From Cupriavidus necator (GTDB lineage: Bacteria; Pseudomonadota; Gammaproteobacteria; Burkholderiales; Burkholderiaceae), in contig NZ_CP066020.1 in NCBI RefSeq assembly GCF_016127575.1, forward strand, positions 360,001 to 392,000: a DNA stretch of 32,000 nt, written 5' to 3'. The notes beneath the pieces are model-generated. The model saw nothing but the letters and a program-made list of their open reading frames with translations. It had not been told where the DNA came from and made no database searches. The translations under genes were made by a program, and so were the position numbers. Shown one piece after another: positions 5,551 through 26,987 of this stretch. Numbering within the stretch: the first letter of the stretch is position 1; each line of letters opens with the position of its first letter.

Positions 5551-5577
5551 TTGACTTCTCGACGGCCTCGGTATCTT
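5551..5577 (+). promoter_or_regulatory. Promoter-like element TTGACT-N15-TATCTT for the helicase operon
   Basis: CTTGACTTCTCGACGGCCTCGGTATCTT, ending 30 nt before the ATG at 5608. It shares the CTTGACTTC core with the sites at 16498 and 26961. Confidence 0.45.
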
Positions 5578-5607
5578 GGATGTAAGAGCAATCCAAACCT
5601 TCCCGCC

Positions 5608-6057
5608 ATGCGCTTCTCTTGCCTCGAACGCCACACCCCCATCGACTTCAATACCCGTCGCCAGGCCGCCTTCGCGCGCAAACAGCAGCGCGAGCGCGAC
5701 AGGTACCCGCTCTTTGCGGATCACGTGGCCGCCGAGCAGCATTCTCCCGACGAGGAACTTGCCCGTCGGCAACGGCGCTCCGACAACCTTGAAAGGACAA
5801 CGCGCGCCTTGCACGCACGCGTCTGGCGAGAGAAGCGCGCCATCTACTTCTCGCTCTCCGATGAACAACGTGCGGAGATCCGCGCAAAGTGGAAGGCATG
5901 GACCGGGCCTACAACCGCCCTCTACTTCGCCTACATCGTCGACACGGTCAGTGGCGAGTATGAGCGACGCTCGGAAGCCGCACGTGCAGACACACTGGCC
6001 ATCCGCCGACGCGTTCTAGCCTCGCTGCCCGAGCAAACTGCATTGGAGATCGCCTGA
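5608..6057 (+). CDS. Hypothetical protein (149 aa), first gene of the helicase operon
   Basis: ATG at 5608 (MRFSCLERHTPIDF...) lies downstream of the promoter-like motif. Its stop overlaps the helicase start (TGATG at 6055-6059). No clear SD. Confidence 0.6.
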   Translation: MRFSCLERHTPIDFNTRRQAAFARKQQRERDRYPLFADHVAAEQHSPDEELARRQRRSDNLERTTRALHARVWREKRAIYFSLSDEQRAEIRAKWKAWTGPTTALYFAYIVDTVSGEYERRSEAARADTLAIRRRVLASLPEQTALEIA

Positions 6058-7517
6058 TGGTCCCCACCGACGAACAGGCTTCCGTTGTCGACGCGGTCAA
6101 GGCCGGCGGGCCGCTGAAAGTCAAGGCGTATGCGGGCGCCGGCAAGACGTCGACGCTACGCCTGGCTGCCGAGGCCCGCGGCCGCGCGCGAGGGCTGTAT
6201 CTGGCCTTCAACAAGGACATCGCCAACGAGGCTGCCCAGAAATTCCCGCAGAACACCCGCTGCCGTACCGTCCACTCGCTCGCGTACAGCGCCACGCCGC
6301 CGGAACTCACCCGCAAGCTCAAGAACCCGGTCGAGCCGCCGCATCAGCTCGCTTTGCGCTACGGTCTCGCCAAGCTGCGCCTGCCGACGACGATCGGCAA
6401 GGATCTCGAACTGAGCGCCAGCAAGGTCGCCCGAATAGTGATGGACGGCGCGGCGCGTTTCTGCCGCTCCGCACAGGCCGAGCCTCTTGCGTGGCACATT
6501 CCAGTGGAGTCGATCGTGAAGGAGGAGGAGGCCGAGCATCTGCGCGACTCGCTGCTGCCCTACGTCAAGCGGCTCTGGGGTGAATACCTCGACCCCGCTT
6601 CCCCGTCAGCGATCGTTCACGACGTCTACGTAAAGAGGTGGGAGCGCAGCCGGCCGCGCATTGGTGCCGACTTCATCCTGTTCGACGAAGCGCAGGATGC
6701 CGATGGCCTGATGCTGTCGGTGCTGCGCGCGCAGCAGTCCCAGGTCATCTACGTCGGCGACCCGTACCAGCAGATCTACGAATGGCGCGGCGCGGTCAAC
6801 GCCATGGAGCATATTCGTGCACCTGAATGCGCTCTCACCGAATCGTTCCGTTTCGGCCCGGCCATCGCTCAACTGGCCAGCCGCGTGCTGCGGCTCATGG
6901 ACGAGGAAACGCCCGTCCGTGGACAGGACCACGTTGAGTCCCGGATCCTGCACGACTCAACGCCAGGACAGGATCGCTTCGACGCCATCCTGTGCCGCAA
7001 GAACGCGACGGTCCTGACGCACCTTGCCCAGGGCATCGGCCGGGGCGATCGCGTGGCGGTGCGCGCCAACGTCGACGAGCTCCGCGCCTTTGCCGACGGC
7101 GCCGAGCAGCTCATGCGCGGCCAGCGCATCGGCTACCCCGCCACCCTCGCCCTGTTCGAAACGTGGGAAGAGGTCCAGGAATATGCCGAATCGTTCGCCG
7201 GCCGCGACCTGAAGCCCCTCGTCACGTTGATCGACAACGAGGGCGTGGACTATCTGCGCCTGATCCTCACCCGCGTCTCGCCAGAGGATGAGGCCGACTA
7301 CATCGTGTCGACCGTCCACCGGGCCAAGGGCCTCGAATGGGAGCGCGTGCAGCTCGCCGGCGACTTCAAGTTCAAGACCGGCGACGACGGCGAACTCACC
7401 ATGGCACCGGAAGAGATGCGCCTGCTTTACGTCGCCATGACACGCGCGAAGCGCCTGCTCGATGTGAGCGAGATCCGGCGCGACCTCTACACCATGTTCC
7501 GGGAAGCCGGTGTCTAA
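6057..7517 (+). CDS. UvrD/Rep-like superfamily 1 DNA helicase (486 aa)
   Basis: Walker A YAGAGKTSTL, motif II ILFDEAQD, YQQIYEWRGA, and motif VI TVHRAKGLEWERV followed by LLYVAMTRAK. Confidence 0.9.
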   Translation: MVPTDEQASVVDAVKAGGPLKVKAYAGAGKTSTLRLAAEARGRARGLYLAFNKDIANEAAQKFPQNTRCRTVHSLAYSATPPELTRKLKNPVEPPHQLALRYGLAKLRLPTTIGKDLELSASKVARIVMDGAARFCRSAQAEPLAWHIPVESIVKEEEAEHLRDSLLPYVKRLWGEYLDPASPSAIVHDVYVKRWERSRPRIGADFILFDEAQDADGLMLSVLRAQQSQVIYVGDPYQQIYEWRGAVNAMEHIRAPECALTESFRFGPAIAQLASRVLRLMDEETPVRGQDHVESRILHDSTPGQDRFDAILCRKNATVLTHLAQGIGRGDRVAVRANVDELRAFADGAEQLMRGQRIGYPATLALFETWEEVQEYAESFAGRDLKPLVTLIDNEGVDYLRLILTRVSPEDEADYIVSTVHRAKGLEWERVQLAGDFKFKTGDDGELTMAPEEMRLLYVAMTRAKRLLDVSEIRRDLYTMFREAGV

Positions 7518-7527
7518 AGGAGAGACC

Positions 7528-8757
7528 ATGATCACCGTGCGGATTGGCGGGAACGAGTACCCGCTGGATGAGGTTTTGGAAGATCCCGGCCGCTACGCGC
7601 GCCACCTCGAGCGTGCCAAGACGATCCAGGGATTCGCGGAATGCGGCTGCGCAGAGGGCCGGCCGCGGCCCAAACTGGTGATCCGGCGACACCGCGATAT
7701 TTTCCTGCTCGCGCGCTGGCCGGAACAGGCGTTCCGGCACGCCGAAGGATGCCCCTTCCACCGGAAGACCCAGACAACGCCCGGCGCCGCCGACAGTCTC
7801 GACGCATTTCGCATGCGCGATGGCCGCCACGATATCCGCCTCGACGCCTCACTTTCGGTCAGCACCCACACACCGGCCAAAACCGTCCAGCGAACGCCGA
7901 AGGGCCAGTTCACAAAGCCGCAACGGCGATCCGCAGGCCTGCTGGCGCTCCTCGAATTCGCTTGGGAGCAGGCCGGTCTTAATGTCTGGCCTGGTACCGG
8001 TGCCCGCAGCTGGAACGGCTGCTGGTCACAGTTGACGGCCGAACTGGACGATTGCAGGATCAATGGCAAGGACGCCGACGGCCTGCTGCACGTCATGCAG
8101 CGGTGGGACCCGGCGCGGAAGTCCGAAATCCTGGCCGAGTTCGAGGCGTGGCAGGCTAGGCTTTCGCCTACCGCCGCCGGGAATCCCCGCGGCATTCTGA
8201 TCGGCGAAATCGAGTCGCACGCCGCCACCCAGTACGGAGGGAAGGTCGTCCTGCGCCAGAGCACGCAGCGGTTCTTCATGTCCTCGGGACTGTACGAACG
8301 CCTGCAGGCTTCCTTTGGCACCGCGCTGGCCGGCATCGGACGGGCCGAGCAACGGTGTGTCGCTGTCCTGCTCGTTGAGAAGTCCCGCTCGAACTACCTG
8401 ACGGTCGTCGATATTGGCGCCATGCTGGCAAACCGGCAGTTCCTGCCTTGCGACTCCTCCCATGAGGTCGCCATGGCCGATCACCTGGTCGCTCTGCGCC
8501 GGGCATTTCGCAAGCCGCTGCGGCATATCGGCCGAGCGGAGGTACACCCCGACTTCGTCCTGACCGATGTCCAGCCCGAAACGGTCATCGAAGTACTCGG
8601 CATGGCCGGCAATCCCGCGTACGACGCTCGGACGGCGAGCAAGCGCCAGCACTACCAGACTGCCGGCGTTCCATTTCTGGAATGGGATGCGGTAGCCACG
8701 TCGATTTCCAGCGTCCGCGTGCCGCCGGCTGGCACACGGGCAGCCGATGCACGCTGA
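7528..8757 (+). CDS. DUF1173-like protein (409 aa) with an N-terminal CxC...CxxH cluster and a C-terminal PD-(D/E)xK-like segment
   Basis: ATG at 7528 preceded by AAAGGAGAG. ECGCAEG...(35 aa)...GCPFH resembles a SWIM-type metal site. The C-terminal VHPDFVLTDVQPETVIEVLG resembles nuclease motifs II and III. The family assignment is from memory of ICE annotations. Confidence 0.75.
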   Translation: MITVRIGGNEYPLDEVLEDPGRYARHLERAKTIQGFAECGCAEGRPRPKLVIRRHRDIFLLARWPEQAFRHAEGCPFHRKTQTTPGAADSLDAFRMRDGRHDIRLDASLSVSTHTPAKTVQRTPKGQFTKPQRRSAGLLALLEFAWEQAGLNVWPGTGARSWNGCWSQLTAELDDCRINGKDADGLLHVMQRWDPARKSEILAEFEAWQARLSPTAAGNPRGILIGEIESHAATQYGGKVVLRQSTQRFFMSSGLYERLQASFGTALAGIGRAEQRCVAVLLVEKSRSNYLTVVDIGAMLANRQFLPCDSSHEVAMADHLVALRRAFRKPLRHIGRAEVHPDFVLTDVQPETVIEVLGMAGNPAYDARTASKRQHYQTAGVPFLEWDAVATSISSVRVPPAGTRAADAR

Positions 8758-9118
8758 TCGGATCCCGATCGCCGACGCCCTGTATGGCAAGGCGCTGGAA
8801 CTGGTGCATCAGCACCGCGCCGCGTCAGTTGCGCTTCTGGAGCGCCATCTCGGCCTCGGGCTGGACATGGCTGAAGCGCTGCTGCAACGAATGGCCAGGG
8901 AAACCACAGCCGTGCGACGCGTGCCGAGCGGCCTGTATCTCTACACACACGGCCCCATCGGAGAAGAGTTGGCGGCACTCCACGGGTTCGCGCAGGAGGT
9001 CCTCGCAGCGCTCGCAAGCGACAGTGTGGATGTCGCCGATCTGCGAGCCGCTGCAGGCCGCTACGGTCTCCCGGTTCCGCGCCAGGCTGCCCCAACGCGA
9101 CCGCCGCGCCGCCGCTGA
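8747..9118 (+). CDS. FtsK-gamma-like winged-helix protein (123 aa)
   Basis: DALYGKALELVHQHRAASVALLERHLGLGLDMAEALLQRMARETTAVRRV matches the FtsK gamma pattern (D.L...A...V.....S...LQR....G...A....M......V). The start overlaps the upstream gene by 11 nt. Confidence 0.65.
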   Translation: MHADRIPIADALYGKALELVHQHRAASVALLERHLGLGLDMAEALLQRMARETTAVRRVPSGLYLYTHGPIGEELAALHGFAQEVLAALASDSVDVADLRAAAGRYGLPVPRQAAPTRPPRRR

Positions 9119-9125
9119 ACATGGC

Positions 9126-9308: not shown

Positions 9309-9322
9309 AGCAGTCCCCCGTC

Positions 9323-9349: not shown

Positions 9350-9589
9350 GACTCCAATGTAGCCGCGCACAAGCTAACCAGCCAGCCCAATGAAACCTGC
9401 CGCCCCTCATATCTCCCCGAAGACACCTGCCGCTACGGACATCGGCCGCGCGTCGCAGCCGCACTCGCCAGTCAGCGTCGGGCGAGGTGTCTGCGAGCTT
9501 TGCGGCTCGATTGCATCGCACCTCCACGTCGAGGCCAACCGGCCCGAGCGCGACACACGAACCCTGGACCTGTTCGAGGACCACCAACA

Positions 9590-10711
9590 ATGAGCGAAAA
9601 CACAAAGATCGAATGGACCGACCACAGCTGGAATCCGTGGGAGGGCTGCCAGCACGTTGGCCCTGGCTGTGACCACTGCTACGCGGAGACCCGTAATGCC
9701 CGCTTTGGCGGTGGCCAGGCCCAGAACTGGGGGCCCGGCGCCCCGCGCCGGCGCACGTCCGCCACCAACTGGCGCAAGCCGTTCCGCTGGAACCTGGCGC
9801 ACGCTGCCTTCGCCGCGGTGCACGGGCGCCGCCAGCGCGTCTTCTGCGCGAGCTTGGCCGATGTGTTCGACAACGAGGTGCCAATCGAATGGTTCATCGA
9901 CATGCTCGATGTGTGGCGGCAGACCCCAAACCTCGACAAGCTCGTGCTGACCAAGCGCATCGGCAACGCCATGAAGCGGCTGGGCGAAGCGTTCAATGCA
10001 CTGATGCTGCGCGACGACTGCGCGGAGAATCCCTTGGTGCCGTGGCTGGCCACGTGGATCGCAGGCAACGCACCCGCGGATATCTGGTTGGGGGCCACGA
10101 TCGTCAATCAGGCCGAAGCGGTACGAGACATTCCGAAGCTGTTGCGTGTCCCCGCCAAGACCCGCTTCCTGTCCATGGAGCCCCTGCTCGGCCACGTCGA
10201 CGTGTTCTCGACAATCACGGGCGAGCTGCTACACACGTCCGGCAACGATTACAACCCTGGTTCGATCGACTGGATCATCGCAGGCGGTGAGAGCGGAAGC
10301 GACGCACGCCCGATGCACCCTGCCTGGTCGCGCAGCTTGCGGGACCAGTGCGCAGCGGCGGGCGTGCCCTTCCTCCTAAAGCAGTGGGGCGAGTGGCATA
10401 CCGCTTCCGTGCTCACGACCTCTGGCGAGCCGGCATTCCGAACGTTCGAGACGTTTGAGCAATGGGTAAACAAGGCCAGCACCTGGGTCGGCGGCGGCAT
10501 CTGCCTCGACAAGCACGGCCAGCAGCTACAGAAGGGAGACGATTTCATCCGAGCACGCGACGAATGCCGCTTCCCAGTCACCGTCATGGACCGGGTGGGC
10601 AAGAAGGCAGCAGGCCGGCAACTCGACGGGATGCTGCATGACGCTTTCCCTGTGACCTCGTTGGACGTGGCGGAGGCCTGCCACCGCGCCCTGGGTCGTG
10701 GAGCAGTCTGA
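9590..10711 (+). CDS. Phage Gp37/Gp68 family (DUF5131) protein, long form (373 aa)
   Basis: The hallmark N-terminus is present: MSENTKIEWTDHSWNPWEGCQHVGPGCDHCYAE (three-Cys motif). The C-terminal ending is GRQLDGMLHDAFP. GAGGA lies 9 nt upstream of the ATG at 9590; the track start at 9323 is an extension. Confidence 0.85.
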   Translation: MSENTKIEWTDHSWNPWEGCQHVGPGCDHCYAETRNARFGGGQAQNWGPGAPRRRTSATNWRKPFRWNLAHAAFAAVHGRRQRVFCASLADVFDNEVPIEWFIDMLDVWRQTPNLDKLVLTKRIGNAMKRLGEAFNALMLRDDCAENPLVPWLATWIAGNAPADIWLGATIVNQAEAVRDIPKLLRVPAKTRFLSMEPLLGHVDVFSTITGELLHTSGNDYNPGSIDWIIAGGESGSDARPMHPAWSRSLRDQCAAAGVPFLLKQWGEWHTASVLTTSGEPAFRTFETFEQWVNKASTWVGGGICLDKHGQQLQKGDDFIRARDECRFPVTVMDRVGKKAAGRQLDGMLHDAFPVTSLDVAEACHRALGRGAV

Positions 10712-11952
10712 TGCGCCAACTAGACCTGTTCGCACACGTCGCCGCGGCGTTTGCAGACGCGTCCGAAGATGGGCTCTCCACCGGCGCTCTCTACGATATT
10801 GTGGCGCGTTCGGCGGGCATCGATCACAGCGCGGCCACGGCGCGCGTTCCGATCGGGACTGCAAAGGCACTGCATAGCCCATTCAAGCGTGCGGTTCGCT
10901 GGCACCAGCAGACGCTCAAGACGCTCGGTGTTGTCGAGCGTGTCGCCGATCGCACGGGATTCTGGCGCCTCACGCAGCCGGTCACCAAGGACCTCGACCG
11001 TGCAGCTGACGGCGTCAAGCTGGTCGCGTTCAGCACGATGCTCGGCATGGCCATCTGGGCTCGAAATGAGGATGTGTTTCGAGGATTGGCGGAACCCATC
11101 GCCTTGTGCGTCACGTCGCCGCCATACCCACTGCGGCAAGCCAGGGCATATGGCAATCCTACGGATAACCAGTATGTCGACTTCATCTGCGGGGCGCTCG
11201 AGCCGATCGTTGCCAATCTCGTGACCGGCGGCAGCATCGTCCTGAACATTTCCAACGACATCTTCCAGCACCGCAGTCCCGCCCGATCCCTCTATATGGA
11301 GCGGCTTGTGCTGGCCCTTCATGACCGACTCGGCTTGGCGCTGATGGACCGCATTCCATGGGTGAACTACAGCAAGCCGCCGGGCCCGACTCGATGGGCA
11401 TGCGTGGACCGTGTCCACCTCGCAACGGCATACGAGCCATTACTATGGCTGACGAACGATCCAGGCCGTGTCCGTGCCGACAACCGCCGCGTGCTGCAGG
11501 CCCATACCGAACGGCATCGGCGGCTGCTCGAAGCCGGTGGCGAACAGCGGTCAGCCAGTTACGGTGATGGTGCCTATCGGATCCGACCCCAGTCCTTTGG
11601 CAATCCGACATCCGGCCGGCTTTCCCGCAATGTCGTCGAACGCGGCCACCGCTGCGCCGACACCCTGGCCTACCGCAGGGCGGCCGCGACGCTTGGATTG
11701 CCCGCGCAAGGCGCCATGCAGCCTACCGCCATCCCGGACTTCTTTACAAGATTCCTGACCGAGCCTGGCGACCTGGTCGTCGATCCGTTCGGCGGCACGA
11801 TCCGTACGGGCCTCGCCGCCGAGCGATTGGGCAGGCGCTGGATCGTCACGGAATGGATCCTCCAGTATGCTCGCGGCGCCGCCGAGCTGTTTCGTCAGTC
11901 CGACGGCTTCCTGATGCACCCCGCCCTCCAATGGGCTTCCCAAGGTCGATAG
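10711..11952 (+). CDS. Beta-class N4/N6 DNA methyltransferase (413 aa) with an extra ~115-aa N-terminal domain
   Basis: Motif IV CVTSPPYPL precedes motif I LVVDPFGGTIRTGLAAERLGRRW, the order typical of the N6_N4_Mtase family. The start overlaps the DUF5131 stop (TGATG at 10709-10713). Confidence 0.9.
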   Translation: MRQLDLFAHVAAAFADASEDGLSTGALYDIVARSAGIDHSAATARVPIGTAKALHSPFKRAVRWHQQTLKTLGVVERVADRTGFWRLTQPVTKDLDRAADGVKLVAFSTMLGMAIWARNEDVFRGLAEPIALCVTSPPYPLRQARAYGNPTDNQYVDFICGALEPIVANLVTGGSIVLNISNDIFQHRSPARSLYMERLVLALHDRLGLALMDRIPWVNYSKPPGPTRWACVDRVHLATAYEPLLWLTNDPGRVRADNRRVLQAHTERHRRLLEAGGEQRSASYGDGAYRIRPQSFGNPTSGRLSRNVVERGHRCADTLAYRRAAATLGLPAQGAMQPTAIPDFFTRFLTEPGDLVVDPFGGTIRTGLAAERLGRRWIVTEWILQYARGAAELFRQSDGFLMHPALQWASQGR

Positions 11953-12284: not shown

Positions 12285-12875
12285 ATGCCTAGCGGCCTCT
12301 TTCAATGCGCGCACTGCGGCGGCGCGCCCACCTACGTCGCCGGCCGGCTCCAGGCCGTCATCGCCTGCGACGAATGCGGGATGTCAACGCCGCCGGTCGA
12401 GAACGATCCCAGGAATAGGGACGCCGCCTTCCCGCGACTCAGCGCCATCTGGAACAGCCGCGTCGACCTTCGCCCGGCCGACAAGGAAGCCATCTCCATG
12501 ATCGCCCGGCGTGCGCTGACCTCCTCCGACATCCCCTATTTCCTCAATCTTCTCGCCTCCACAACCAGCGACTGGGAAGCCAACGGACCGATGTTCGCGA
12601 CGATGGCTGCAGCCCTTACCCAGCCCGGCTACGAGTTCAAGCACGTCGGCCCGCCCGAAACTGTTCTCTCGCAAGCCGCCCGCTACCAGAAGCTGCTGCA
12701 GCGCGCGAAGGTCATCCATATCGATGGCGCTCCGATGGTGCGCTTTGAGCATGTGCCGGCCTTGGCCGCGGAAGTCGCGGAGGAGGGTCTGGCGGATCAG
12801 GATTGGCCGCTCCTCGACATGGAAGAATTCGTCGGTAAGGCCATCGACAGCCTGCCGGATCATTGGCAGCCTTGA
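12285..12875 (+). CDS. Protein with an N-terminal Lar-like (restriction alleviation) zinc ribbon (196 aa)
   Basis: FQCAHCGGAPTYVAG...VIACDECGMSTPP...RLSAIWNSR matches the Lar family pattern CxxCGG...CxxC...WNxR. The C-terminal ~125 aa are unassigned. Confidence 0.65.
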   Translation: MPSGLFQCAHCGGAPTYVAGRLQAVIACDECGMSTPPVENDPRNRDAAFPRLSAIWNSRVDLRPADKEAISMIARRALTSSDIPYFLNLLASTTSDWEANGPMFATMAAALTQPGYEFKHVGPPETVLSQAARYQKLLQRAKVIHIDGAPMVRFEHVPALAAEVAEEGLADQDWPLLDMEEFVGKAIDSLPDHWQP

Positions 12876-12932
12876 CTTTGCCCAGCGGCGGGCAAGCTGA
12901 AGGCGTATCCACTTCAACGGAATTCCCCTCAG

Positions 12933-13822
12933 ATGACCCGCCAGCTTCTCGCAGCAGTCGTTCTCTCCCTTGCATCCCTCACGGCAAGCGCACGGGACAC
13001 GGGACAGGCCTGTGCTCACGTCCTGCCTACGGGCCAACCCACGACTCAACCAGCGGGCCGCACGCAGTTGCTGTGCTACCGCGCCTACGCCGTTCTCTAT
13101 TCGAGCCAGACACGCACCGCGCTGTGGTCTGCCGAGCGTCTCACGCGGGAGGCCGTCGACGCCGCGCGCAAGCTGCCACGCGACAGCGACTTCTACGAAG
13201 AGGAGCGACTGCCCGAAGCCGACCGCGCCAGGCTGGCCGACTACCGACGCGGATCGGGCATGGATCGAGGGCCCCGAGCGGCGACTTCCCGGACAAGGCG
13301 TCCCAAGCCGAGAGCTTCAGCCTCGCGAACGTTATCCCCCAACACAGCGTGTCGAACCGCCGCACCTGGAGTCACATCGAGACGTCCACACGCAGGCTGG
13401 CCCGCCAGCACGGTGCGATCCAGGTGGTGACCGGCCCCGCATTCGTCGGCACCCCGAGGACGCTGGGCCACGTGCACATCCCCGACTTCATTTGGAAAGC
13501 GATCCACGTGCCAGGCATTGGCGCCGCCGTCTACCTTGTCCGCAACGACGCGACGCCCGCGTACAGTGTCATTAGCGTCGCAGAATTGCGGCACTTTGCA
13601 GGGATCGACCCGTTTCCGACACTCCCCAAGGCCATGAACGCCACGGCGATGGACCTGCCCCTTCCCACCCCGCACCCTGGTGAGAAGGCGGCGCGCCGCG
13701 TCGCGTTCGCATGGCTTGCATCGGGCGAAGCCGCCGCGGCCTCGCGCGCGACGGAGCCTCTCCACCAAGCCATCCGGGACGCAAGTGCAATCCTGTCGCT
13801 GGCCCTCGCCCACGCACGTTAG
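12933..13822 (+). pseudogene. Secreted DNA/RNA non-specific (DRGH-type) endonuclease, frameshifted within the catalytic motif
   Basis: The frame from 12933 gives a signal peptide (MTRQLLAAVVLSLASLTASA) and ...LADYRRGSGMDRG, then degenerates. The -1 frame continues APSGDFPDKASQAESFSLANVIPQHSVSNRRTWSHIETSTRRLA...VVTGPAF to 13822. The break is at the C4 run at 13272-13275. Confidence 0.8.
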
Positions 13823-14452: not shown

Positions 14453-15610
14453 TCATCGACCCACCTCTTGCGCGAGAATCCGATACAGCTTCGTTCGCGA
14501 TATCCCAAGCTCGCGTGCCGCGACAGCCTTGTTCCCACCCGCCGCGGCGATCGCAGCTTTGACATCCTCCAGCGTTGGATCAGTCCGTCCGATTGACAGC
14601 TGAGTAGCGTACGTCGACAGATACGCGTTCGCTTTCGTGGCCCGGCTGTGTCCTGCCGCCTCCACCACCTTGCGCATAGCTTCGCGGTGCGCCTGGACAT
14701 CGACCACCTTCCCTCCACCCTTCACCGCTGCGGCCTGGCCGCTCTCCCGCTGGTACATCTGCTGCAGGAACTGGTGGCGCAGTCCGTGTGCCGTTACGCC
14801 CTGACCATTCTTGGTTACCCCGTGCTTCTCCAGGACGGTATAGAAGCGCCGGCGCCAACGGATCTGGGTGTACGTAGCAGGAATCAGCGTCCCCTTTTCC
14901 GGATTGGTGGCATAAGCGAGTGTCGCAGCCTTGCCAAGCAATTCGTACTGCCAGCCGAATTCGATCGGGACGCGGCGGGGCCTTCCACCCTTCGTGCCGT
15001 CGTGCACATGCAGCATCCCTGATGGGAGCACGTCCAAAGCCGGCCGCAACCGCCAACTTTCCATGGCCCGCAGACCAAAAGCAGCCTCAAGCTTGAGCTG
15101 CAGCGCGACATGGGCGTCCGTGACCTCGATCTCGGCGATTTTTGCCGCCGCGTCAATGCCCTTACCTTCCCAGGATTTGTCCTCGCGTGCGATATAGCTC
15201 CGTGCATAACCGGCCGGCCGCTCTACATAGTCGTCGATCCGCCCAACCACGTTGGTCTTGCCCATCCACGACATCAGTGCACGCAGGTGGGTGAGGCGCA
15301 GCTCCACCGTGCCTGCGTTCAACTTCCGGTCACCCACCCAGTACTGGACCAGCCAGCGGACGTGCTTCTGCCGGATGCTATATGGCGAATTCACGGCCAT
15401 GCCGCCGACGCTGCGCAGCTCTACGAACATTGCGAGCAGGGCCTGCAGGCGCTGGCGCTGCGACATTTGCGACAGCGACCTGCCGCTCACTCGCGTTCCG
15501 CTATGCGGTAGGTGCAAATGCTCCGCAGCCAGCAATGCAAACTCAGTCTTGAACCGTTCTGGTAGGTTGTACTGGTTAATGATGGGGCGCAGGTGGATAG
15601 TCTTGATCAT
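14453..15610 (-). CDS. Tyrosine recombinase (385 aa) with a C-terminal Fis-type helix-turn-helix
   Basis: AFGLRAMES (box I Arg), TAHGLRHQF (HxxR), AAGHSRATKANAYLSTY (His and Tyr nucleophile region), and C-terminal GGNKAVAARELGISRTKLYRIL. GAGGA lies 5 nt upstream of the ATG at 15610. Confidence 0.9.
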   Translation of the reverse strand: MIKTIHLRPIINQYNLPERFKTEFALLAAEHLHLPHSGTRVSGRSLSQMSQRQRLQALLAMFVELRSVGGMAVNSPYSIRQKHVRWLVQYWVGDRKLNAGTVELRLTHLRALMSWMGKTNVVGRIDDYVERPAGYARSYIAREDKSWEGKGIDAAAKIAEIEVTDAHVALQLKLEAAFGLRAMESWRLRPALDVLPSGMLHVHDGTKGGRPRRVPIEFGWQYELLGKAATLAYATNPEKGTLIPATYTQIRWRRRFYTVLEKHGVTKNGQGVTAHGLRHQFLQQMYQRESGQAAAVKGGGKVVDVQAHREAMRKVVEAAGHSRATKANAYLSTYATQLSIGRTDPTLEDVKAAIAAAGGNKAVAARELGISRTKLYRILAQEVGR

Positions 15611-16178
15611 ACGGTCCTCGGAAGGTTGCGCTTCGCGCATGCGGCGCCAGGCGAATGCCCGCCCATGGACGCCCGCCGCTCATTGCTGGACAGCGCCGAC
15701 CCCGATCCGGCATTGCCCCCTCGGTGCACCGGGGTACCACCCCCGGCTTACCGGCCCACCCAGCCGGTCCCGCCACTACCTTCCTGTCCTTTAGCGATGC
15801 CAAACCGATCAGCCCTGAGCATGGAAGCAATGCGTCGTGACTGTCCGCTGTGCGCGTGAAGGCCTCCGCCTTCACGCCGCTGCGCGGCCACCCTATCCGG
15901 TGCATCTCGCGATGCCGGTCCGGATGGCGCCAGGATCAAGTCCTGAATGCCTCCGGCCTATGCCGTGATGGGTGATTACTTGTTGCGCCGTTCTGGTACC
16001 GGTAGCGCCCCCCGGGTCGATATTGCTCAGAAGCTTGCGTCCACCGTCGTATCGGTACGTACCAGCTCCCCGCCCCAAAGCCGGATCATTCCCGCCGCGG
16101 TGTGTCGGGCTTCGTGATCCGCGCCCAGCCAACTGGCTGAAAGGGCGTCTGGCATTCGTGGAAATTCGACAGAGCACC

Positions 16179-16271
16179 TGTCCGGTGTCCGGCTTCGGAA
16201 TTGTCCACACTACGGTCTATTTTCACGAACAGACCGCCAATCGGCTTGGTATCGCGGTGTCCGGTGTCCTC
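16179..16271. repeat. Two tandem pairs of a TGTCCGG-type heptamer plus single related copies
   Basis: TGTCCGGTGTCCGG at 16179-16192 and TGTCCGGTGTCCT at 16258-16270. Related singles: TGTCCAC at 16202 and TGTCGGG at 16103. All lie in non-coding DNA. Confidence 0.8.
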
Positions 16272-16497
16272 ACTATCCAACACGGTCCACTTGATTTGAT
16301 TGAAAAAAATGCCGGTTCAATTTCCGGCGTGAACAACTGGCACCGCAAGGCCCGGTTGCCCGGCTTTGGGTGTTGAATTTGCCGCGCAGATGTCGGCGAG
16401 GTCGATGCGTCGGGGACGCTGAAGGTATGCCAAGCATAAACCAAAGCTCCGAGCCGTCGCAACGAAATCGCCGGCAATTTCGCGAGCTTTCGAAAAC

Positions 16498-16524
16498 TTG
16501 ACTTCGCGACGCAAGGAGTAGATT
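16498..16524 (+). promoter_or_regulatory. Promoter-like element TTGACT-N15-TAGATT upstream of the ParM-like operon
   Basis: CTTGACTTCGCGACGCAAGGAGTAGATT, giving a 176-nt leader to the ATG at 16701. Confidence 0.4.
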
Positions 16525-16541
16525 CGAAGGGGATCGGAGAG

Positions 16542-16626
16542 CAGGTGTTAGCTGCGGGTCAACAGGTCTCAACAGGTGATAGCTGTTCACACCCTGGTGT
16601 CACTTGCTTACACTTGGTGACACCAG
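16542..16626. repeat. Operator or centromere-like cluster of direct and inverted repeats in the ParM-like leader
   Basis: Direct repeat CAGGTGTTAGCTG (16542-16554) and CAGGTGATAGCTG (16573-16585). TCAACAGGT occurs twice, 10 bp apart (16559, 16569). Perfect inverted repeat CTGGTGTCAC (16594-16603) and GTGACACCAG (16617-16626). CACTTG occurs twice. Confidence 0.75.
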
Positions 16627-16700
16627 ATAGCCCGTGCTGTCATAGGTCTAACATCACCACCGCGCTCCGACTACGTTCAACTTGCCAAGGAGAGCTTCAA

Positions 16701-17699
16701 ATGAGCACCAATACCATTGCGGTCGATGTCGGCTATGGAAACACCAAATTTGCCTTCCCCCTCGGCGCAGACGTGGCAGCCAGCATGTTTCCGTCGCTGG
16801 CCCCCACGCGCTCGGCATCCAGCCTTGCCAGCCACGGCGGTGGCTACTTCCAGGCTCGCGATGTGGTCCATGTGACTGTTGATGGCGCCGAATACGAGGT
16901 GGGCCCAGACGTCTCGATCACCTCGGCCTATGGCAACAACGGGCGCACCTTGTCGGAAGATTTCGTTACCACGCCTGAGTATGCAGCCCTGCTGTTTGGT
17001 GCGCTTCACTATTCCCAGGCCAGGGACGTAGGCCAACTCATCCTCGGCCTTCCCGTCCATACGCTGCAGAAGTACGCCGGCGCCTTGCAGGAGCGATTCA
17101 CCGGCGCCCATGACTTCGGCGCCGGCGACGTCACGATCAAGCGGGTCGTCGCGCTTCCCCAACCCCTCGGCTCGCTGGTGACCTTTATGCGCCAGTCGGG
17201 GAAGGAACTGGATCCCGACGACAATTGCCTGATCGTGGATGTCGGCTACTTCACCACCGACTGGGTTGTCGCCCGCGGCTACATGATGGACGACACCCGT
17301 AGCGGCGGCGTGCCGGGTGGGTCCTCTCGGATCTACAAGCAGGTGGCCACGCTCCTCTCCGCCGACGAAGGCGGCGAGCCAACCGGAGACATTGAGCGCA
17401 TCGACAAGGCGCTGCGCCAGGGAAAGCTTATGCGCTACTACGAAAAGATGGTCGACCTGCGGCCGTACTTCGAAGTCGCCAAGGCCCAGTGCCAAATGGC
17501 TGTGAAGGAGATGCAGACCCGGGTGGGTCGCACGGAAGATATTGCGGCGATCGTCCTGACCGGTGGCGGTAGCGCCCTATACTCCGGCGCCATCCGCGCG
17601 GCCTTCCCGCGCTCGCACATCGTCGCCATGGATTCCCCCTGCTTCGCCAATGTCCGGGGCTTCTTCGACATCGGCAGCGCGCGTCAAGCCCGGGGCTGA
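16701..17699 (+). CDS. ParM/StbA-like actin-fold segregation ATPase (332 aa)
   Basis: IAVDVGYGNTKFA (phosphate 1), LIVDVGYFTTDW (phosphate 2), IVLTGGGSALY (adenosine motif). AAGGAGAG lies upstream of the ATG at 16701. Confidence 0.85.
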   Translation: MSTNTIAVDVGYGNTKFAFPLGADVAASMFPSLAPTRSASSLASHGGGYFQARDVVHVTVDGAEYEVGPDVSITSAYGNNGRTLSEDFVTTPEYAALLFGALHYSQARDVGQLILGLPVHTLQKYAGALQERFTGAHDFGAGDVTIKRVVALPQPLGSLVTFMRQSGKELDPDDNCLIVDVGYFTTDWVVARGYMMDDTRSGGVPGGSSRIYKQVATLLSADEGGEPTGDIERIDKALRQGKLMRYYEKMVDLRPYFEVAKAQCQMAVKEMQTRVGRTEDIAAIVLTGGGSALYSGAIRAAFPRSHIVAMDSPCFANVRGFFDIGSARQARG

Positions 17700-18504: not shown

Positions 18505-18532
18505 AGCCCAGCAATTGCTGGGCTTTGTCGTT
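18505..18532. terminator. Bidirectional terminator between the convergent + and - strand operons
   Basis: AGCCCAGC-AATT-GCTGGGCT forms an 8-bp stem, preceded by GAAAAT and followed by TTGTCGTT. Confidence 0.6.
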
Positions 18533-21954: not shown

Positions 21955-21957
21955 GAT

Positions 21958-22363: not shown

Positions 22364-22722
22364 GGTTTCTCACGAGAAACAGTCAAAGGGATTTCCTGGA
22401 CGGATGCCAGGCGATTATTCGATGCTCGGAAGAGCAAGGAATCCAATGAGGCGCGCTTAGAACGGCAACGCGCTTGCGACATGCCATGCATGTCGTAAGG
22501 ACGCTGCCCGAATGCGGCAATAAATGGAATGTGGCGGACCGCCAAACGGGCCTGTGCAGCCCAAGCGGAATGTCAGTGCAATCTAACCGCCGAGTCGATG
22601 CGTCAAAGACGCTAGAGGTGTCTGCACTCTACACGGCTAGTCAATGCATGACAAGTTCGCCGCATTCACATCGAGCATCGAATCGAATCGCGAGTCCAAA
22701 TCCCGAGTATTCGCAATTTCGA

Positions 22723-22999: not shown

Positions 23000-23052
23000 G
23001 AAGTGGCTGCCGCGATCACCGGGGCTACAACACCATTCCGTAGGGGCAACCA

Positions 23053-24219
23053 ATGAAGAAGAAAGAAGAAGAAAGTCGCGAATTCAACCTGGTCGATCCA
23101 AAGTCGCCAAACGCTATGCGCGAACTGGTGACCCAGCAACTGGGTCACTTTATCGACGCCGGCGCCATCGGGCGCATCGTGCAGGCAGCGCAGGAGATCG
23201 AGCTCTCCCGGAAACGCATCCTGGCCGAACACACCGCCATCGGGTCTCGGCTATTCCAGATCTACCACTCCATCCTGACGTGCGTGCAAAAGCGATTGGG
23301 CGACACGCCGCGCGCCCGCCAGGAAGCCGATGACAGTCTGTACGCCCTCGCCGTCAGGGGCATGCGCATTTCACGCGCCTCGGTAATCAAGTATCTGCAG
23401 GCATTTCATCACTTCTCAGAGAACCACGACGCCTTGACGTTTCTGAACCTTGGCGAACTGACGATCCTCAAGCGTTCGGACATCACCAACGAGGAAGTAC
23501 AGCGGTTCATCGACGCGCGCAAGAACGATGAATCCTATTCGCGCAAGGAGATCCTGCCTTATATCGAGTGGTCTCGACGCACGCACCAGGACCTCAATCA
23601 CGTCATGGCCACGCTGGAAGCCGCGGAAGAGCAACTGAACGAGAGTCTGGAGCGCCAGCGCGATCTCGAAGCCCAGATGCGCCACATGCGTGAGCAAATG
23701 AACTCTGCGGACGCGCTCAATGCTGCGCAGAAGGATCAACTGGATCGCACTTCTGGCGCACTCACGTCCCAGCAGCACGCCATGGACAGCCTGCAGCTCT
23801 CCATCACCAGATTGAACGAAGAGCGACAAGCCTTGCAGAAGGCATTAGCAGATTCAAGGATCCGAGAGGTAGTGAGGGAGGTGAAGGTCGAAGTCGTTCC
23901 CGCTGAATACAAAGACCTCTCCGACGCCGTCATCGGTGAAAGCAGCAAGCTCGACGCCACAAAAGCGCAAGTCAAGGAAGCTGAGCGACGACTGGCGGAG
24001 GTCAACGCCGAACTTGAGCAACACGAGGCAAAGGAGGCTGACTCAAGAAGCCTGGCGCTGCGCATCGACGGCCTGAAGGCCGATCTCGATGATGCGCTCG
24101 CCAAGCTTCGAAGCTCCGTCAAGGCAATCAAGGTAAAGGAGCATGGCGCCGCGCTGTTGTCCTTGCGCCGCAGTGCGGAGGCATTCCACAACGAACTGAT
24201 CGCTATCACCGGAGCTTGA
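23053..24219 (+). CDS. Coiled-coil protein (388 aa) with an N-terminal, possibly ParB/KorB-like HTH region
   Basis: The N-terminal ~170 aa are globular (RISRASVIKYLQAFHHFSENHDALTFLNLGELTILKR). Residues ~185-388 are heptad-like and rich in E/Q/L/A/R/K. AGGGG lies 7 nt upstream. Confidence 0.8.
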   Translation: MKKKEEESREFNLVDPKSPNAMRELVTQQLGHFIDAGAIGRIVQAAQEIELSRKRILAEHTAIGSRLFQIYHSILTCVQKRLGDTPRARQEADDSLYALAVRGMRISRASVIKYLQAFHHFSENHDALTFLNLGELTILKRSDITNEEVQRFIDARKNDESYSRKEILPYIEWSRRTHQDLNHVMATLEAAEEQLNESLERQRDLEAQMRHMREQMNSADALNAAQKDQLDRTSGALTSQQHAMDSLQLSITRLNEERQALQKALADSRIREVVREVKVEVVPAEYKDLSDAVIGESSKLDATKAQVKEAERRLAEVNAELEQHEAKEADSRSLALRIDGLKADLDDALAKLRSSVKAIKVKEHGAALLSLRRSAEAFHNELIAITGA

Positions 24220-24221
24220 CG

Positions 24222-25394
24222 ATGCAATCCACGCTTACCCGTTCCATCTTTGAGCAGTTTGTTCTCCCGGCCTGGGTGCGAGATCGCGTGCTTTCCGCGA
24301 ATCTCCGGATCAGCAACTACGTCCTGAACACGGTATCGGTGCATCCGACGCTGGAGAACGTTTTCAGGGTCTCCAGCGAAAACCTTCGGTCGCTTCGTGA
24401 AAATATCGGCCAGTCGTCGAAGGTACTGGGGACGTCATTCCTTGCTTACGCACCGACGCTCACGACCGTGGAGGACTGGCGTTCGTTCATTGAGGGCAGG
24501 ATGCCGACGGTCACGATGGAACGCCTCAAAGCAATGGTGCCTCACAGCCTATCAGTGGTGGACAGGCTGGCGCTCGAGCACACCAACCGCTCGTACATCA
24601 ATGCTGTGTACGACCTCCTGAACATGTCGGTGTTGGCAGCACCGCTGATCGGCATCTCCAACGAATTGGCGTCGTACCTGCGCTCAATTCCGCAGCACCA
24701 ATTCGACGTGGCCATGACCGAGCGTCTGATACCGCTCTTCCATTGGCGCTTTGCGGACGAGATGTTCTGGCTGGAAATCCACACAGGCCGACTCTCGCGG
24801 GAGATGATTGCCCACTACCTGATGGAGACCTCGCCGCTCCGCTCGGACCGCTTGCCCCACTCTGGCGTATGGGGCAAGTTCCGCCTGGAGACGTTCGAGC
24901 GCGATGCTCTGTTCGAAGCGTTTCTGTCCTTTAGCTGTCGGGCCATGAGCGTTTGTTCACTGTTCAATACCAGCATTGAGCATACGAGGAAGACCTACCA
25001 GCGCATACACGGGAAGTCCTCACCATCCGGCCAACCTCCTGCTTCGCTGATGTGGTACCTCGAATCCGCGCAACGCCGCGTTCAGGCGACATTCCAGATC
25101 TGGCTGTTTCGGTCCGCTATCGCCTGTGACGTCTCGACGCCGGAAAGCTTCGTCGCAATGCTAGACATTCACCGGGCCTTTTTTGCGGACGATTGCAATG
25201 TCCCGGCCGAGCGCTCCCTGCATCTGGCCCGCTCCATGTCGACGAGCGAGGAACTTGCGGTTTGGCCCTGCCGGAAGTGCGGCACACCCTATCTGGCATC
25301 GAACTCCTCCGCGAAGATCGAGCTTTCGCAGTCGTTCCTTTGCCCGTGCTGCAACGGGACGTTGATCCCCTCGCGTGGCGGGCGCCGGAACTAA
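24222..25394 (+). CDS. Putative transcriptional activator with FlhD-like and FlhC-like regions in one polypeptide (390 aa)
   Basis: ATG at 24222 with GGAG 7 nt upstream and a 2-nt gap after the preceding stop. Residues ~120-180 ([55 protein letters not shown]) resemble FlhD. Residues ~225-385 ([28 protein letters not shown] ... LHLARSMS ... [11 protein letters not shown] ... SFLCPCC) resemble FlhC, including its Cys4 zinc site. Confidence 0.8.
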   Translation: [390 protein letters not shown]

Positions 25395-26428
25395 TGCGAA
25401 ACTACTTCGTCATCGCAGCGTGCTGCGCGGGCCCGGTTTGGGCAACTGGGAGCGCGCCACCGCCCGTCCAGTTGCCCGAGGCGCCCGCGGCAGCTGCGCT
25501 CAGGATGAACGTGGCCGATCCAACCTACTCCGAAGGCTCTGGACAGCTCGCGCTCTTCAAGGGCGTCAACACCTTGCGCCAGAAGCTTGGTGTCGGGCTG
25601 CTCGCGCAGGACGCCGCGCTCGACACAGCTGCCCAGGCACATGCCGTCTATCTCAGTGCCCACAGCGTGGCGCAGCATGACCAGACACCTGGGTCTCAGC
25701 ATTTCTACGAGGCCACGCCACTGCTGCGCGCGCAGAAGGCCGGTATCGGGGATTCCCAGTGGGTAGCCGAAGTCGTGGGCGCGGCCAGGGGGCCGAACGA
25801 CCGTGAGATTGGCCTCGGCTGCATCGACCAGTGGTACCACACCGTCTATCACCTGCAGTCCCTTGTGACCAACCAGGAATCCATCGGTATTGGGTACAGC
25901 AGCATAGGTGCCTTAGGCCTGAACCATTGCGTTCTGGACTTTGGCACGAGCACTGCCACGCAGCCAAGCCCTACCCCCAACGGCGTGCCCTACGGGGGCG
26001 GTCAGCAGTTTGACGCTGAAACTTTCGTCACTGTGCCGGCGGACGGCGACATCGGTGTGCAGGGCGGGTTCAATTTCGCCGGCGAGTCGCCAAATCCCGC
26101 GCCAGACCTGCCTACGCCGGGCCGGCCTCTGATGGTGTACGCCAACGGCGCGCTCGCGGAAGTGCTATCCGTGACGGCCTTCAAACTTGTGGCCAGAAAC
26201 GGCGCCGAGATGCCTGCACGCGTATTGGTGTCCCCCGCCGCGAAGGCGGATGGTTCTGCTGGTGTTGCCGACGAGTACCTACGCAACAATGCGGCCTTCC
26301 TGCTCCCGCTCGCGCCCTTGGCTGATCGTGAGACCTACACGGCTTCTTTCACGGGCACTCGGGCCGGTAAGCCGGTGAGCCTTTCCTGGACCTTCAGGAC
26401 TGCAGCACCCACCACGGCCTTGCGATAG
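25394..26428 (+). CDS. Secreted CAP/SCP-domain protein (344 aa), paralog of 27040..28062
   Basis: The start overlaps the upstream stop (TAATG). Signal-like MRNYFVIAACCAGPVWA. CAP-like FKGVNTLRQKLGVGLLAQDAALDTAAQAHAVYL. Blocks shared with the paralog: VYHLQSLVTNQESIG, GESPNPAPDL, SWTF. Confidence 0.8.
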   Translation: MRNYFVIAACCAGPVWATGSAPPPVQLPEAPAAAALRMNVADPTYSEGSGQLALFKGVNTLRQKLGVGLLAQDAALDTAAQAHAVYLSAHSVAQHDQTPGSQHFYEATPLLRAQKAGIGDSQWVAEVVGAARGPNDREIGLGCIDQWYHTVYHLQSLVTNQESIGIGYSSIGALGLNHCVLDFGTSTATQPSPTPNGVPYGGGQQFDAETFVTVPADGDIGVQGGFNFAGESPNPAPDLPTPGRPLMVYANGALAEVLSVTAFKLVARNGAEMPARVLVSPAAKADGSAGVADEYLRNNAAFLLPLAPLADRETYTASFTGTRAGKPVSLSWTFRTAAPTTALR

Positions 26429-26482
26429 CCCGCTCCTCCGAGCAGAAGGGGCTGGTGAAGCGCCATAACAGGAGATTGAGAG

Positions 26483-26815
26483 ATGGAATGGATCACGATT
26501 GCGATCGCTTTCGCATTGCCCGCGTACCTCGCGTTCAAATGGGCCAGGCAGGAGGATCGCTGGGCTTGGCCATGGGCGATCGCGTGCATGGTCTTCTCGT
26601 ACTTTGGCTTGCTCGCATTCGTGTTGACCCGCGAGGGCCTGCCCACGGTGAGTGAATATGCCCGCAAGTATCCGACTTGCGTGACGGAGCGCGGCATGTC
26701 CTGCTATCGGTGCGGATCACGGAGTATTCGCCTTTGGCGTGAACAGCCCTTCATCGCCGTGCACCAATGGCACATCTGCAACAGCTGCGGAACGTCGCTG
26801 TACCGTTCGCGGTAG
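26483..26815 (+). CDS. Membrane protein with a C-terminal zinc ribbon (110 aa)
   Basis: Two hydrophobic helices, then CYRCGSRS...CNSCGTS. GGAG lies 8 nt upstream. Confidence 0.65.
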   Translation: MEWITIAIAFALPAYLAFKWARQEDRWAWPWAIACMVFSYFGLLAFVLTREGLPTVSEYARKYPTCVTERGMSCYRCGSRSIRLWREQPFIAVHQWHICNSCGTSLYRSR

Positions 26816-26960
26816 CACGCCCTGGACCAGAGGTCACTCCGAAAATCGAGCCGATAGGTAGGGACACCCCACTTTCCGGGGGTCAAATTCGGCTCCTATT
26901 CGCCGTCTTGGTGTTGGTCGCCTTCGTGTATTCTCACGTCCGGCCGGGGATTGCGGGCAC

Positions 26961-26987
26961 TTGACTTCGCACAGCGATGGGTAAGCT
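26961..26987 (+). promoter_or_regulatory. Promoter-like element TTGACT-N15-TAAGCT upstream of the CAP lipoprotein gene
   Basis: CTTGACTTCGCACAGCGATGGGTAAGCT, ending 52 nt before the ATG at 27040. Confidence 0.4.

Follow-up and report, generated by a model that had tools for sequence, protein, structure and literature searches.

SetCD is the FlhC-type master activator of SXT/R391, and the networks of IncP-1 plasmids (KorA/KorB) and R388 rely on palindromic operators for known repressors on otherwise canonical promoters. AcaCD of IncC plasmids behaves as a class-2 activator (PMC4207636), and BisC binds promoters of ICEclc, an integrative and conjugative element (ICE), with a 15-nt consensus that contains a weak dyad (PMC12409273); the ICEclc motif is 27 bp long and lies approximately 152 bp from the mapped start. 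At the level of the core promoter, Cupriavidus metallidurans has canonical RpoD promoters (TTGACA-17-TATAAT; PMC9045368) as well as “sba” promoters, which have a correctly placed −10 element and a misplaced −35 element and for which dependence on activators, other promoter elements, or competing σ factors has been proposed (Nies et al. 2026; PMC13492112). Here, we describe six promoter-like sites (P1 to P6), each with an extended −35 box and a (T/C)AnnnT −10 element separated by exactly 15 nt, in a window of 32,000 nt from Cupriavidus necator (contig NZ_CP066020.1, positions 360,001 to 392,000); coordinates refer to this window unless another sequence is named. The window is 100% identical to positions 328857–360856 of plasmid pHG1 of C. 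necator H16 (NC_005241.1; 452,156 bp), which is conjugative according to its PLSDB typing (relaxases, MOBH/MOBP; mating-pair formation, MPF_T). It is therefore a segment of a plasmid backbone, and a first-pass annotation of the same DNA, which had labelled the element an ICE, was wrong on this point, as the sequence identity and the PLSDB typing identify a 452-kb conjugative megaplasmid. No published description of the motif or of pHG1-type transfer regulation was found in the searchable literature, which also held nothing relevant on PRTRC.

The pHG1 sites resemble canonical RpoD promoters in having two blocks, a TTGAC(A/T) −35 hexamer, a −10 element whose second base is A and sixth base is T, and a distance of 30–250 nt to genes. 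However, their spacer is fixed at 15 nt rather than ranging from 16 to 20 nt (mode 17; n = 48); they show additional conservation of C before TTGAC, TT(C/T)G after it, and G-R-A after the −10 element; they lie on one strand of one plasmid backbone; and no start has been detected at them so far. With sba promoters, they share a −35 element that is too near the −10 element for efficient positioning of the RpoD polymerase; sba promoters, however, are a loose genome-wide category with variable offsets and with membership defined from mapped starts, whereas the plasmid class, known here from sequence, combines an exact offset with a near-perfect −35 element and a conserved regulon. As in the AcaCD, SetCD, and BisDC regulons, one motif is found ahead of numerous operons on an element of MOBH type with a gene for an FlhC-related regulator, with possible self-activation of the regulator operon. 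The motifs of those regulons, in contrast, are activator boxes upstream of or beside the core promoter, whereas the plasmid motif appears to be the core promoter itself, and the partner of the plasmid regulator is neither FlhD-like nor ParB-like; this distinction from the ICEclc and AcaCD motifs is drawn from their descriptions rather than from their sequences, as their logos were published as figures. As in the IncP-1 and R388 backbone regulons, many backbone operons have a common regulatory signature and would be held down in the established state; while IncP-1 and R388 share palindromic operators, no such operator is common to the pHG1 sites. Finally, the physical mechanism considered below resembles that of Forquet et al. 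2022 (PMC9303308), in which relaxed DNA relatively favours 15-nt spacers and high negative supercoiling disfavours them, an effect described for model promoters of E. coli and, statistically, as a genome-wide trend rather than for a dedicated plasmid regulon or for Burkholderiaceae.

Six Sites with a 15-nt Spacer on pHG1

The pattern CTTGACW-N15-TANNNT matched the window exactly five times, at 5550, 9322, 16497, 22972, and 26960, always on the plus strand, as compared to a mean of 0.03 matches expected from dinucleotide-preserving shuffles (none of 100 shuffles reached five). These are the five sites of identical geometry listed in the first-pass annotation, whose coordinates were one too high and which overlooked a sixth site. 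The sixth site (12871–12898, plus strand; CTTGACTTTGCCCAGCGGCGGGCAAGCT) was found with a 32-column weight matrix trained on 32 sites taken from the window and from eight related plasmids; it had been missed by the earlier pattern since its −10 element, CAAGCT, starts with C. An enrichment and conservation scan, as had been suggested for this motif, was carried out with the matrix and gave 23.4–34.2 bits for the six window sites (9.2 bits for the next best position on either strand) as well as 139 sites in the plasmid family described below. The training sites of the matrix were selected by regular expression, such that TTGAC and TA...T were fixed and all other columns free; despite this, the spacing histogram and the strand bias reported below rest on independent loci, and the set of PRTRC-D promoters on protein-anchored orthologues.

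All five exact sites are intergenic and point at the next plus-strand gene, with 30, 240, 176, 53, and 52 nt between the −10 element and the annotated start, and three of them have an 11-nt core, CTTGACTTC(G/T)C, in common, both as first described. The gap of 240 nt at P2 is reduced to 41 nt when an unannotated 67-codon open reading frame (ORF; 9390–9593, plus strand) is counted. The plus-strand transcription units are preceded by a genuine two-block element that is promoter-like, oriented, and non-random. A loose match on the minus strand at 22606 (TTGACG-N15-TAGATT) was rejected as a member because it scored 5.2 bits and is kept only in a nearly identical C. oxalaticus plasmid; this match lacks the flanking conserved bases and is located just 3′ of the predicted start of a canonical promoter.

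For the background scan, the whole of pHG1 was assembled from ten pieces. At a cut-off of at least 20 bits, seven sites were found over both strands of the 452-kb plasmid, all on one strand and six of them in the window; scores below these seven were approximately 13 bits, the level of shuffled sequence. On pHG1, TTGACN-Nx-TANNNT matched six times on the plus strand and once on the minus strand for x = 15, and at most three times per strand for any other x from 11 to 22. None of the pHG1 operons for hydrogenase, Calvin cycle, denitrification, replication, partition, type IV secretion, or pilus functions had the motif in the whole-plasmid scan. A generic σ70 scan that allowed spacers of 16–18 nt reported none of the five exact sites, confirming that the spacer from TTGACW to TANNNT is 15 nt; other −10 registers that would give a spacer of 16–18 nt were rejected, as they offer no hexamer in which A is the second and T the sixth base. 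The seventh pHG1 site, outside the window (pHG1 216282–216313; 30.3 bits; CTTGACTTTGCCGGTGTGTCGGTAATCTGGAA), is located in a part of pHG1 rich in integrase and toxin-antitoxin genes, where it precedes the hypothetical gene H16_RS32475 by 55 nt; a paralogue of H16_RS32475 (69% identical; L005:23561–23950, where L numbers are our locus designations) has no detectable site.

Conservation across Burkholderiaceae Plasmids

Homologues of the FlhC-family protein encoded downstream of P5 were found on 69 plasmids of Cupriavidus, Ralstonia, Burkholderia, Paraburkholderia, Caballeronia, and Robbsia (33–95% identity), with conserved gene order around the gene, and a one-genome-per-species scan yielded 35 further loci, all from Burkholderiaceae. 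A total of 44 related loci, nine annotated and 35 further (660 kb), were scanned with a cut-off of at least 18 bits; the loci were picked via the FlhC-family gene, so co-occurrence of motif and regulator is not independent. All 46 sites found in the nine annotated loci were on the same strand as the FlhC gene; 40 of these 46 sites were located no more than 300 nt upstream of a same-strand coding sequence (median 61 nt), and the exceptions include an insertion sequence (IS) and an unannotated pseudogene. The 35 further loci contained 93 sites on the FlhC-gene strand and none on the other, bringing the family total to 139 sites on one strand and 0 on the other, in agreement with the first-pass observation that minus-strand units lack the motif. 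The spacing histogram for the 35 further loci showed 75 plus-strand and 0 minus-strand matches at x = 15 and no more than seven at any other x.

Sites precede the same operons in every genus (i.e., ParM-like, CAP, coiled-coil/FlhC, DUF1173, and Lar/nuclease), and the CAP-gene site is present in nearly every family locus. In some loci, a gene encoding a NERD nuclease sits before the coiled-coil/FlhC operon and bears the site, and the CAnnnT variant of the −10 element seen in P3 was also found before nuclease or NERD genes on pMOL28, pBB2, and plasmids of Ralstonia, Burkholderia, and Paraburkholderia. When the PRTRC-D gene was placed by tblastn alone, 34 of 36 loci had a site (19.7–37.3 bits) 130–244 nt upstream, as compared to a maximum of 12.2 bits in shuffled 460-nt regions upstream of PRTRC-D. 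Among 31 distinct PRTRC-D promoter orthologues, CTTGACTT and TAGA.T were 97–100% conserved and spacer positions 30–75%, with the encoded proteins being 47–65% identical outside the closest relatives; spacer sequences vary between orthologues, and the length is 15 nt in every site. Judging from these alignments, the conservation points to one promoter design across related Burkholderiaceae plasmids and to a putatively co-regulated gene set. Two out-group plasmids with ParM/PRTRC-D homologues (from Methylobacter and Delftia) had no motif, a comparison that is confounded by phylogenetic distance.

An origin of the sites by chance or as a compositional artefact, or as single-strand (Frpo-type) leading-region hairpin promoters on transferred DNA, would fit with the pattern having been defined after the sequence was seen and with the presence of typical leading-region genes in the region (those for SSB, primase, the anti-restriction protein Lar, and a methylase). 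The shuffling expectation of 0.03 matches and the 139:0 strand bias in independent loci nevertheless make an artefact extremely improbable, and folding of the template strand as single-stranded DNA in 150 nt around the six sites gave z-scores of 0.01 to −1.73, which excludes Frpo-type hairpin promoters.

With respect to architecture, the −35 hexamer is TTGAC(T/A) in six of six window sites, and the extended CTTGACTT is present in 111 of the 139 family sites. The −10 element is TAnnnT or CAnnnT in the window sites; over all 139 sites, position −12 is occupied by T (107 sites), C (27), G (4), or A (1). A at −11 and T at −7 are present in 100% of the 31 PRTRC-D orthologues, which were anchored by protein homology; in the full set of 139 sites, both bases are fixed by site selection. 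Among the free columns of the matrix, C precedes TTGAC in 30 of 32 sites and TT follows it in 26 and 28 of 32 sites, respectively, with C/T and G thereafter; around the −10 element, G-G is found before and G-R-A after, the base at −13 is mostly G, and A is enriched 7–8 nt past the −10 element, where the start would fall. Information content upstream of position −1 is low over the 32 aligned sites, and the motif is not palindromic. On sequence grounds, this pattern of constraint is that of a σ70-family promoter, with two blocks, a fixed-length spacer of free sequence, and invariant A−11 and T−7.

Spacer Length and Transcription Starts in the Host Genus

In the sister species C. metallidurans, 48 housekeeping RpoD promoters with mapped starts have spacers of 16–20 nt, with 17 nt in sixteen, 18 nt in thirteen, and 15 nt in none (PMC9045368, Table 2); the spacer of 15.8 nt quoted by the authors is measured to a −10 motif whose first base lies 2 nt ahead of the hexamer. 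Spacers of the plasmid class are therefore 2–3 bp shorter than the host optimum. The first-pass statement that the spacer is below the norm holds for the host genus, where the mode is 17 nt; at exactly 15 nt in every site, the spacer also lies outside the 17 ± 1 nt of σ70 promoters.

A canonical promoter in the same window provides a contrast. This minus-strand promoter (22654–22626; TTGTCA-17-TAGAGT), found by a consensus scan, is predicted to drive the operon that runs from a gene for a 102-aa hypothetical protein through SSB to primase, and it is conserved, with its 17-nt spacer, in 10 Cupriavidus-type loci. The SSB/primase operon of pMOL28 has a start (TSS_137004-5) 7 nt after the −10 element of the orthologous promoter, TTGCCA-17-TAGAGT, and this start ranks 28th of 5,763 mapped starts (PMC9045368). 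The same list (Grosse 2022; unstressed cells), which includes weak starts with scores <30, contains no start at the four predicted motif positions of pMOL28, and only weak starts, located upstream of the motif, are assigned to the pMOL28 coiled-coil/FlhC operon. In unstressed plasmid-bearing cells, the 17-nt promoter is thus very active, whereas the 15-nt promoters are below detection. The start table of Maertens 2020 showed no plasmid-scale match at the predicted positions among the matches listed, and no genome-wide start-site study for C. necator H16 was found in the literature.

These start data bear on whether the sites may be ordinary constitutive RpoD promoters of modest strength, tuned down by the 15-bp spacer, with neither switching nor common regulation. 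Natural E. coli promoters span spacers of 15–19 nt (PMC9303308), a near-perfect −35 element and a good discriminator could offset a short spacer, and no common operator or activator box was found. However, the four predicted pMOL28 positions are absent from the 5,763 starts, weak ones included, and a geometry that is the same in six operons of different function and throughout the genera of the family suggests that a common property was selected rather than that six promoters were tuned independently; we consider purely constitutive activity decidedly unlikely.

Proposed Activity of the Promoter Class

On balance, the sites are probably RpoD-type core promoters that form one conserved class, weak or silent by design and firing under some condition. 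We infer that transcription starts at these sites, that RpoD reads them, and that their activity is conditional and coordinated. The class would drive the “DNA-handling and establishment” operons that lie on the same strand in megaplasmid backbones of the pHG1/pMOL28 type (i.e., helicase/DUF1173, DUF5131/methylase/Lar, nuclease, ParM-like, FlhC-family regulator, and CAP lipoprotein) from promoters composed of the near-perfect extended −35 box, the (T/C)AnnnT −10 element, a G-R-A discriminator, and the rigid 15-bp spacer. Since host housekeeping spacers measure 17–18 bp, the two boxes would be too close by approximately 2 bp and also out of rotational register; RNA polymerase could probably dock on the strong −35 box but would isomerise poorly, and the promoters would thus be weak or silent on the established, negatively supercoiled plasmid. 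All units would switch on together once a common condition corrects the geometry. One candidate trigger is a plasmid-encoded activator, for which the FlhC-family protein is the obvious candidate; because its own operon has the motif, this would give positive feedback, as in ICEclc. The other candidate trigger is relaxed DNA, as may occur on newly transferred or newly replicated plasmid copies; DNA relaxation favours 15-nt over 19-nt spacers in E. coli, both in vitro and in vivo (PMC9303308). The first-pass proposal of weak, activator-dependent or alternative-σ promoters under common control is consistent with these observations but unproven.

It is possible, although doubtful, that the rigid 15-bp spacer is itself a built-in sensor, such that the promoters either fire on relaxed DNA only or are read by an RNA polymerase re-geometried by a plasmid factor. 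According to the relaxation version, the promoters would be on in copies that have just been made double-stranded in a new recipient or have just been replicated, and would go off as gyrase supercoils the DNA, which would amount to a protein-free “zygotic induction” timer for establishment genes; either version, if true, would mean a dedicated promoter class that defines a megaplasmid-wide regulon across Burkholderiaceae.

Several observations weigh against conditionally active RpoD promoters. The one usable start dataset, which is from unstressed cells with pMOL28, is negative and would fit non-functional sequences as well; the background of the motif was taken from shuffles, pHG1, and family loci; no upstream activator box is common to the six promoters; the conserved C at position 0 and the TT(C/T)G after TTGAC exceed the needs of a −35 hexamer and could mark a protein-binding site; and a 15-bp spacer makes a poor RpoD substrate, so that a different reader is a real possibility. 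Such a reader could be a host alternative σ factor, a divergent plasmid σ-like protein, or RNA polymerase with region 4 repositioned by a plasmid factor, for which 15 bp would be the optimum rather than a handicap. A spacer held rigidly at 15 nt in 139 sites is what an optimum would produce, and the absence of this geometry from the 48 host housekeeping promoters, an extended −35 box (C at position 0, TT at 6–7, G at 9) that is richer in information than usual, the lack of detected starts in unstressed cells (pMOL28), and the confinement of the motif to the plasmid family, to the exclusion of the out-group plasmids with ParM/PRTRC-D homologues, all agree with it. In contrast, the boxes (XTTGACA / TAnnnT) fit RpoD better, by eye, than the Cupriavidus consensus sequences for RpoH (CTTGAAA / CxTATTTT), RpoS (GCTGACA / GCTAAACT), FliA, and extracytoplasmic function σ factors (PMC13492112, Table 4); the base at −13 is mostly G and not the C expected for RpoS; and the annotations of pHG1 and of the fetched family loci include no σ-factor gene, nor were σ domains found in Pfam/NCBIfam scans of the hypothetical proteins of the window. 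A reader other than the plain RpoD holoenzyme is, on this evidence, unlikely.

Conditional activity of RpoD-type promoters of this class would be relevant to a range of trait-carrying plasmids, including pHG1, pMOL28, the C. taiwanensis symbiotic plasmid, and many Burkholderia/Paraburkholderia megaplasmids (with traits such as hydrogen oxidation, metal resistance, nodulation, and catabolism). The class provides a precise, testable handle on the control of transfer and maintenance genes in these megaplasmids, consisting of six short pHG1 sequences with predicted starts, a defined regulon (helicase/DUF1173, methylase/Lar/nuclease, ParM-like, FlhC-type regulator, and CAP lipoproteins), and one variable, spacer length. 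More than 130 promoters in which the conserved feature is a non-optimal spacer length represent a rare natural set, useful for testing, beyond E. coli, what is proposed on spacer length, DNA topology, and activator action; in C. necator engineering, the sites could serve as host-native conditional promoters.

The FlhC-Family Regulator and Its Partner

The “FlhDC-like operon” of the first-pass annotation, downstream of P5, does encode a protein with an FlhC-homologous C-terminal domain, but its partner is a 388-aa coiled-coil protein without similarity to FlhD or ParB. A profile of the FlhC family matched FlhC structures in PDB (8j56_C, E = 3.2e-7; 2avu_E, E = 1.9e-4) over residues 221–378, and four cysteines are invariant in the family; the Pfam FlhC score was 23.4 bits, under the 27-bit cut-off. 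Searches of Pfam, NCBIfam, and PDB with the 388-aa partner detected only coiled-coil (SMC/Rad50-type) noise. A single-sequence structure prediction of the FlhC-family protein was unusable (predicted local distance difference test score of 37.6).

The FlhC-family protein and its coiled-coil partner are the candidates for an explanation in which CTTGACTT(C/T)G chiefly serves to bind a plasmid-encoded class-II activator overlapping and replacing the −35 element, so that only the −10 element is read by σ and the likeness to TTGACA is partly coincidental. FlhC-type master activators run multi-operon regulons on other conjugative elements (PMC4207636, PMC12409273), and this explanation could also draw on the FlhC-homologous domain with its four invariant cysteines, on the motif in front of the regulator's own operon, on conservation that reaches past the hexamer, and on a box centred near −30 rather than −33. 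However, the box lacks both palindromic symmetry and a second half-site, and it equals the best possible RpoD −35 element at 5–6 of 6 positions; the motif sites of pMOL28 are still intact even though IS1086 has inserted between the regulator operon and its promoter; and the ICEclc motif is located approximately 152 bp upstream of the mapped start and is, therefore, a different kind of element. We give an activator-binding box little credence as the main function of the conserved sequence.

Transcription Units of the Window and Additional Observations

Pfam and RefSeq annotation were concordant on the gene content of the window. P1 (5550–5577, plus strand; CTTGACT-N15-TATCTT; 31.7 bits; exact match), with a predicted start at approximately 5584, precedes genes encoding a hypothetical protein (5608–6057), a UvrD-like helicase/exonuclease (6057–7517), a DUF1173 protein (7528–8757), and another hypothetical protein (8747–9118), as assigned by Pfam and annotation; orthologous sites were found in C. 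oxalaticus, C. taiwanensis, and C. necator N-1. P2 (9322–9349, plus strand; CTTGACA-N15-TACGCT; 23.4 bits; exact match; predicted start at approximately 9356), which has orthologues with different spacers, is followed by the unannotated ORF (9390–9593) and by genes encoding a DUF5131 protein (9590–10711), an N6/N4 DNA methyltransferase (10711–11952), a hypothetical protein, and Lar (12285–12875). The stop codon of the unannotated ORF overlaps the DUF5131 start (ATGA at 9590), suggesting translational coupling, and C. taiwanensis has an annotated gene for a 123-aa protein in its place.

P3 (12871–12898, plus strand; CTTGACT-N15-CAAGCT; 27.1 bits; predicted start at approximately 12905) is located at the end of the Lar gene, and its target is a gene encoding a DNA/RNA non-specific endonuclease, with an ATG at 12933, 35 nt 3′ of P3. 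This gene is apparently frameshifted in H16 (12863–13822), where one frame has a signal-peptide-like ORF (12933–13430, starting at the same ATG) and the 12863–13822 frame has the Endonuclease_NS domain; relatives have an intact gene of approximately 300 codons, and the plasmid gene table has no coding sequence at 12863–13822.

P4 (16497–16524, plus strand; CTTGACT-N15-TAGATT; 28.5 bits; exact match; predicted start at approximately 16531) precedes the ParM-like gene annotated as “PRTRC system protein D” (16701–17699) and further ORFs, up to a terminator at 18505–18524. Upstream of P4 (16463–16491), conserved blocks were found in the 31 orthologues, with CGAAA at −34 to −30, AA at −20/−19, and GCTTTC at −11 to −6, numbered relative to the C of CTTGAC; in H16, these blocks form the palindromes CGAAATcgccggcAATTTCG and AGCTTTCGAA, which may be where a regulator, ParR-like or other, has its operator. 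The leader of the ParM-like gene, 176 nt in length, contains a perfect 10-nt inverted repeat (16594–16603 / 16617–16626; CTGGTGTCAC / GTGACACCAG) and repeated CAACAGGT words, which could represent a centromere or an operator, and the intergenic region (15611–16700) is unusually large (1.1 kb). On a Delftia plasmid (L055:19053–20990), a ParM/StbA homologue is divergently paired with mobI(A/C). A mobI gene marks the origin of transfer (oriT) region in IncC and SXT elements; because of this pairing, the large intergenic region upstream of the ParM-like gene is hinted at as a candidate that could hold oriT.

P5 (22972–22999, plus strand; CTTGACA-N15-TAAGTT; 28.1 bits; exact match; predicted start at approximately 23006) precedes the genes encoding the 388-aa coiled-coil protein (23053–24219), the FlhC-family regulator (24222–25394), a first CAP-domain protein (25505–26428), and a hypothetical protein (26483–26815). 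An orphan extended −35-like box, CTTGACTTTCGAAAGC, is located 100 nt upstream of P5 (22870–22885, plus strand) and has no −10 element at 15 nt (score 6.5); it contains the palindrome GCTTTCGAAAGC, similar to the GCTTTC box of the ParM-like promoter. P6 (26960–26987, plus strand; CTTGACT-N15-TAAGCT; exact match), which has the top score of the window (34.2 bits) and a predicted start at approximately 26994, precedes a gene encoding a CAP-domain lipoprotein (27040–28062), followed by a terminator at 28082–28108. P6 is bracketed by a perfect 12-nt inverted repeat (26940–26951 / 27002–27013; CCGGCCGGGGAT / ATCCCCGGCCGG), the 3′ arm of which lies just after the predicted start; the inner parts of the repeat are kept in close relatives, and it could be an operator pair or a read-through RNA structure. 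The CAP-gene promoters of four genera also have a conserved (A/T)TCAAG(C/G)GGTTCG(A/C) just after the −10 element (approximately +1 to +13; L006:21892–21910, L009:21895–21912, L010:21894–21910, L011:23183–23200, and most CAP sites of L019–L053), which could be a gene-specific initial-transcript element or an operator.

The minus-strand genes of the window encode an SNF2/methylase helicase and small hypothetical proteins, HU, an integrase with a Fis-type helix-turn-helix, the primase and SSB operon, and PilV and other type IVb pilus proteins. Many short inverted repeats are located just 3′ of pilV, which encodes a protein with a shufflon N-terminal domain; together with the integrase-domain protein with its Fis-type helix-turn-helix, also encoded in the window, they are noted here as a candidate for shufflon-like switching (28166–28660 and 14453–15610).

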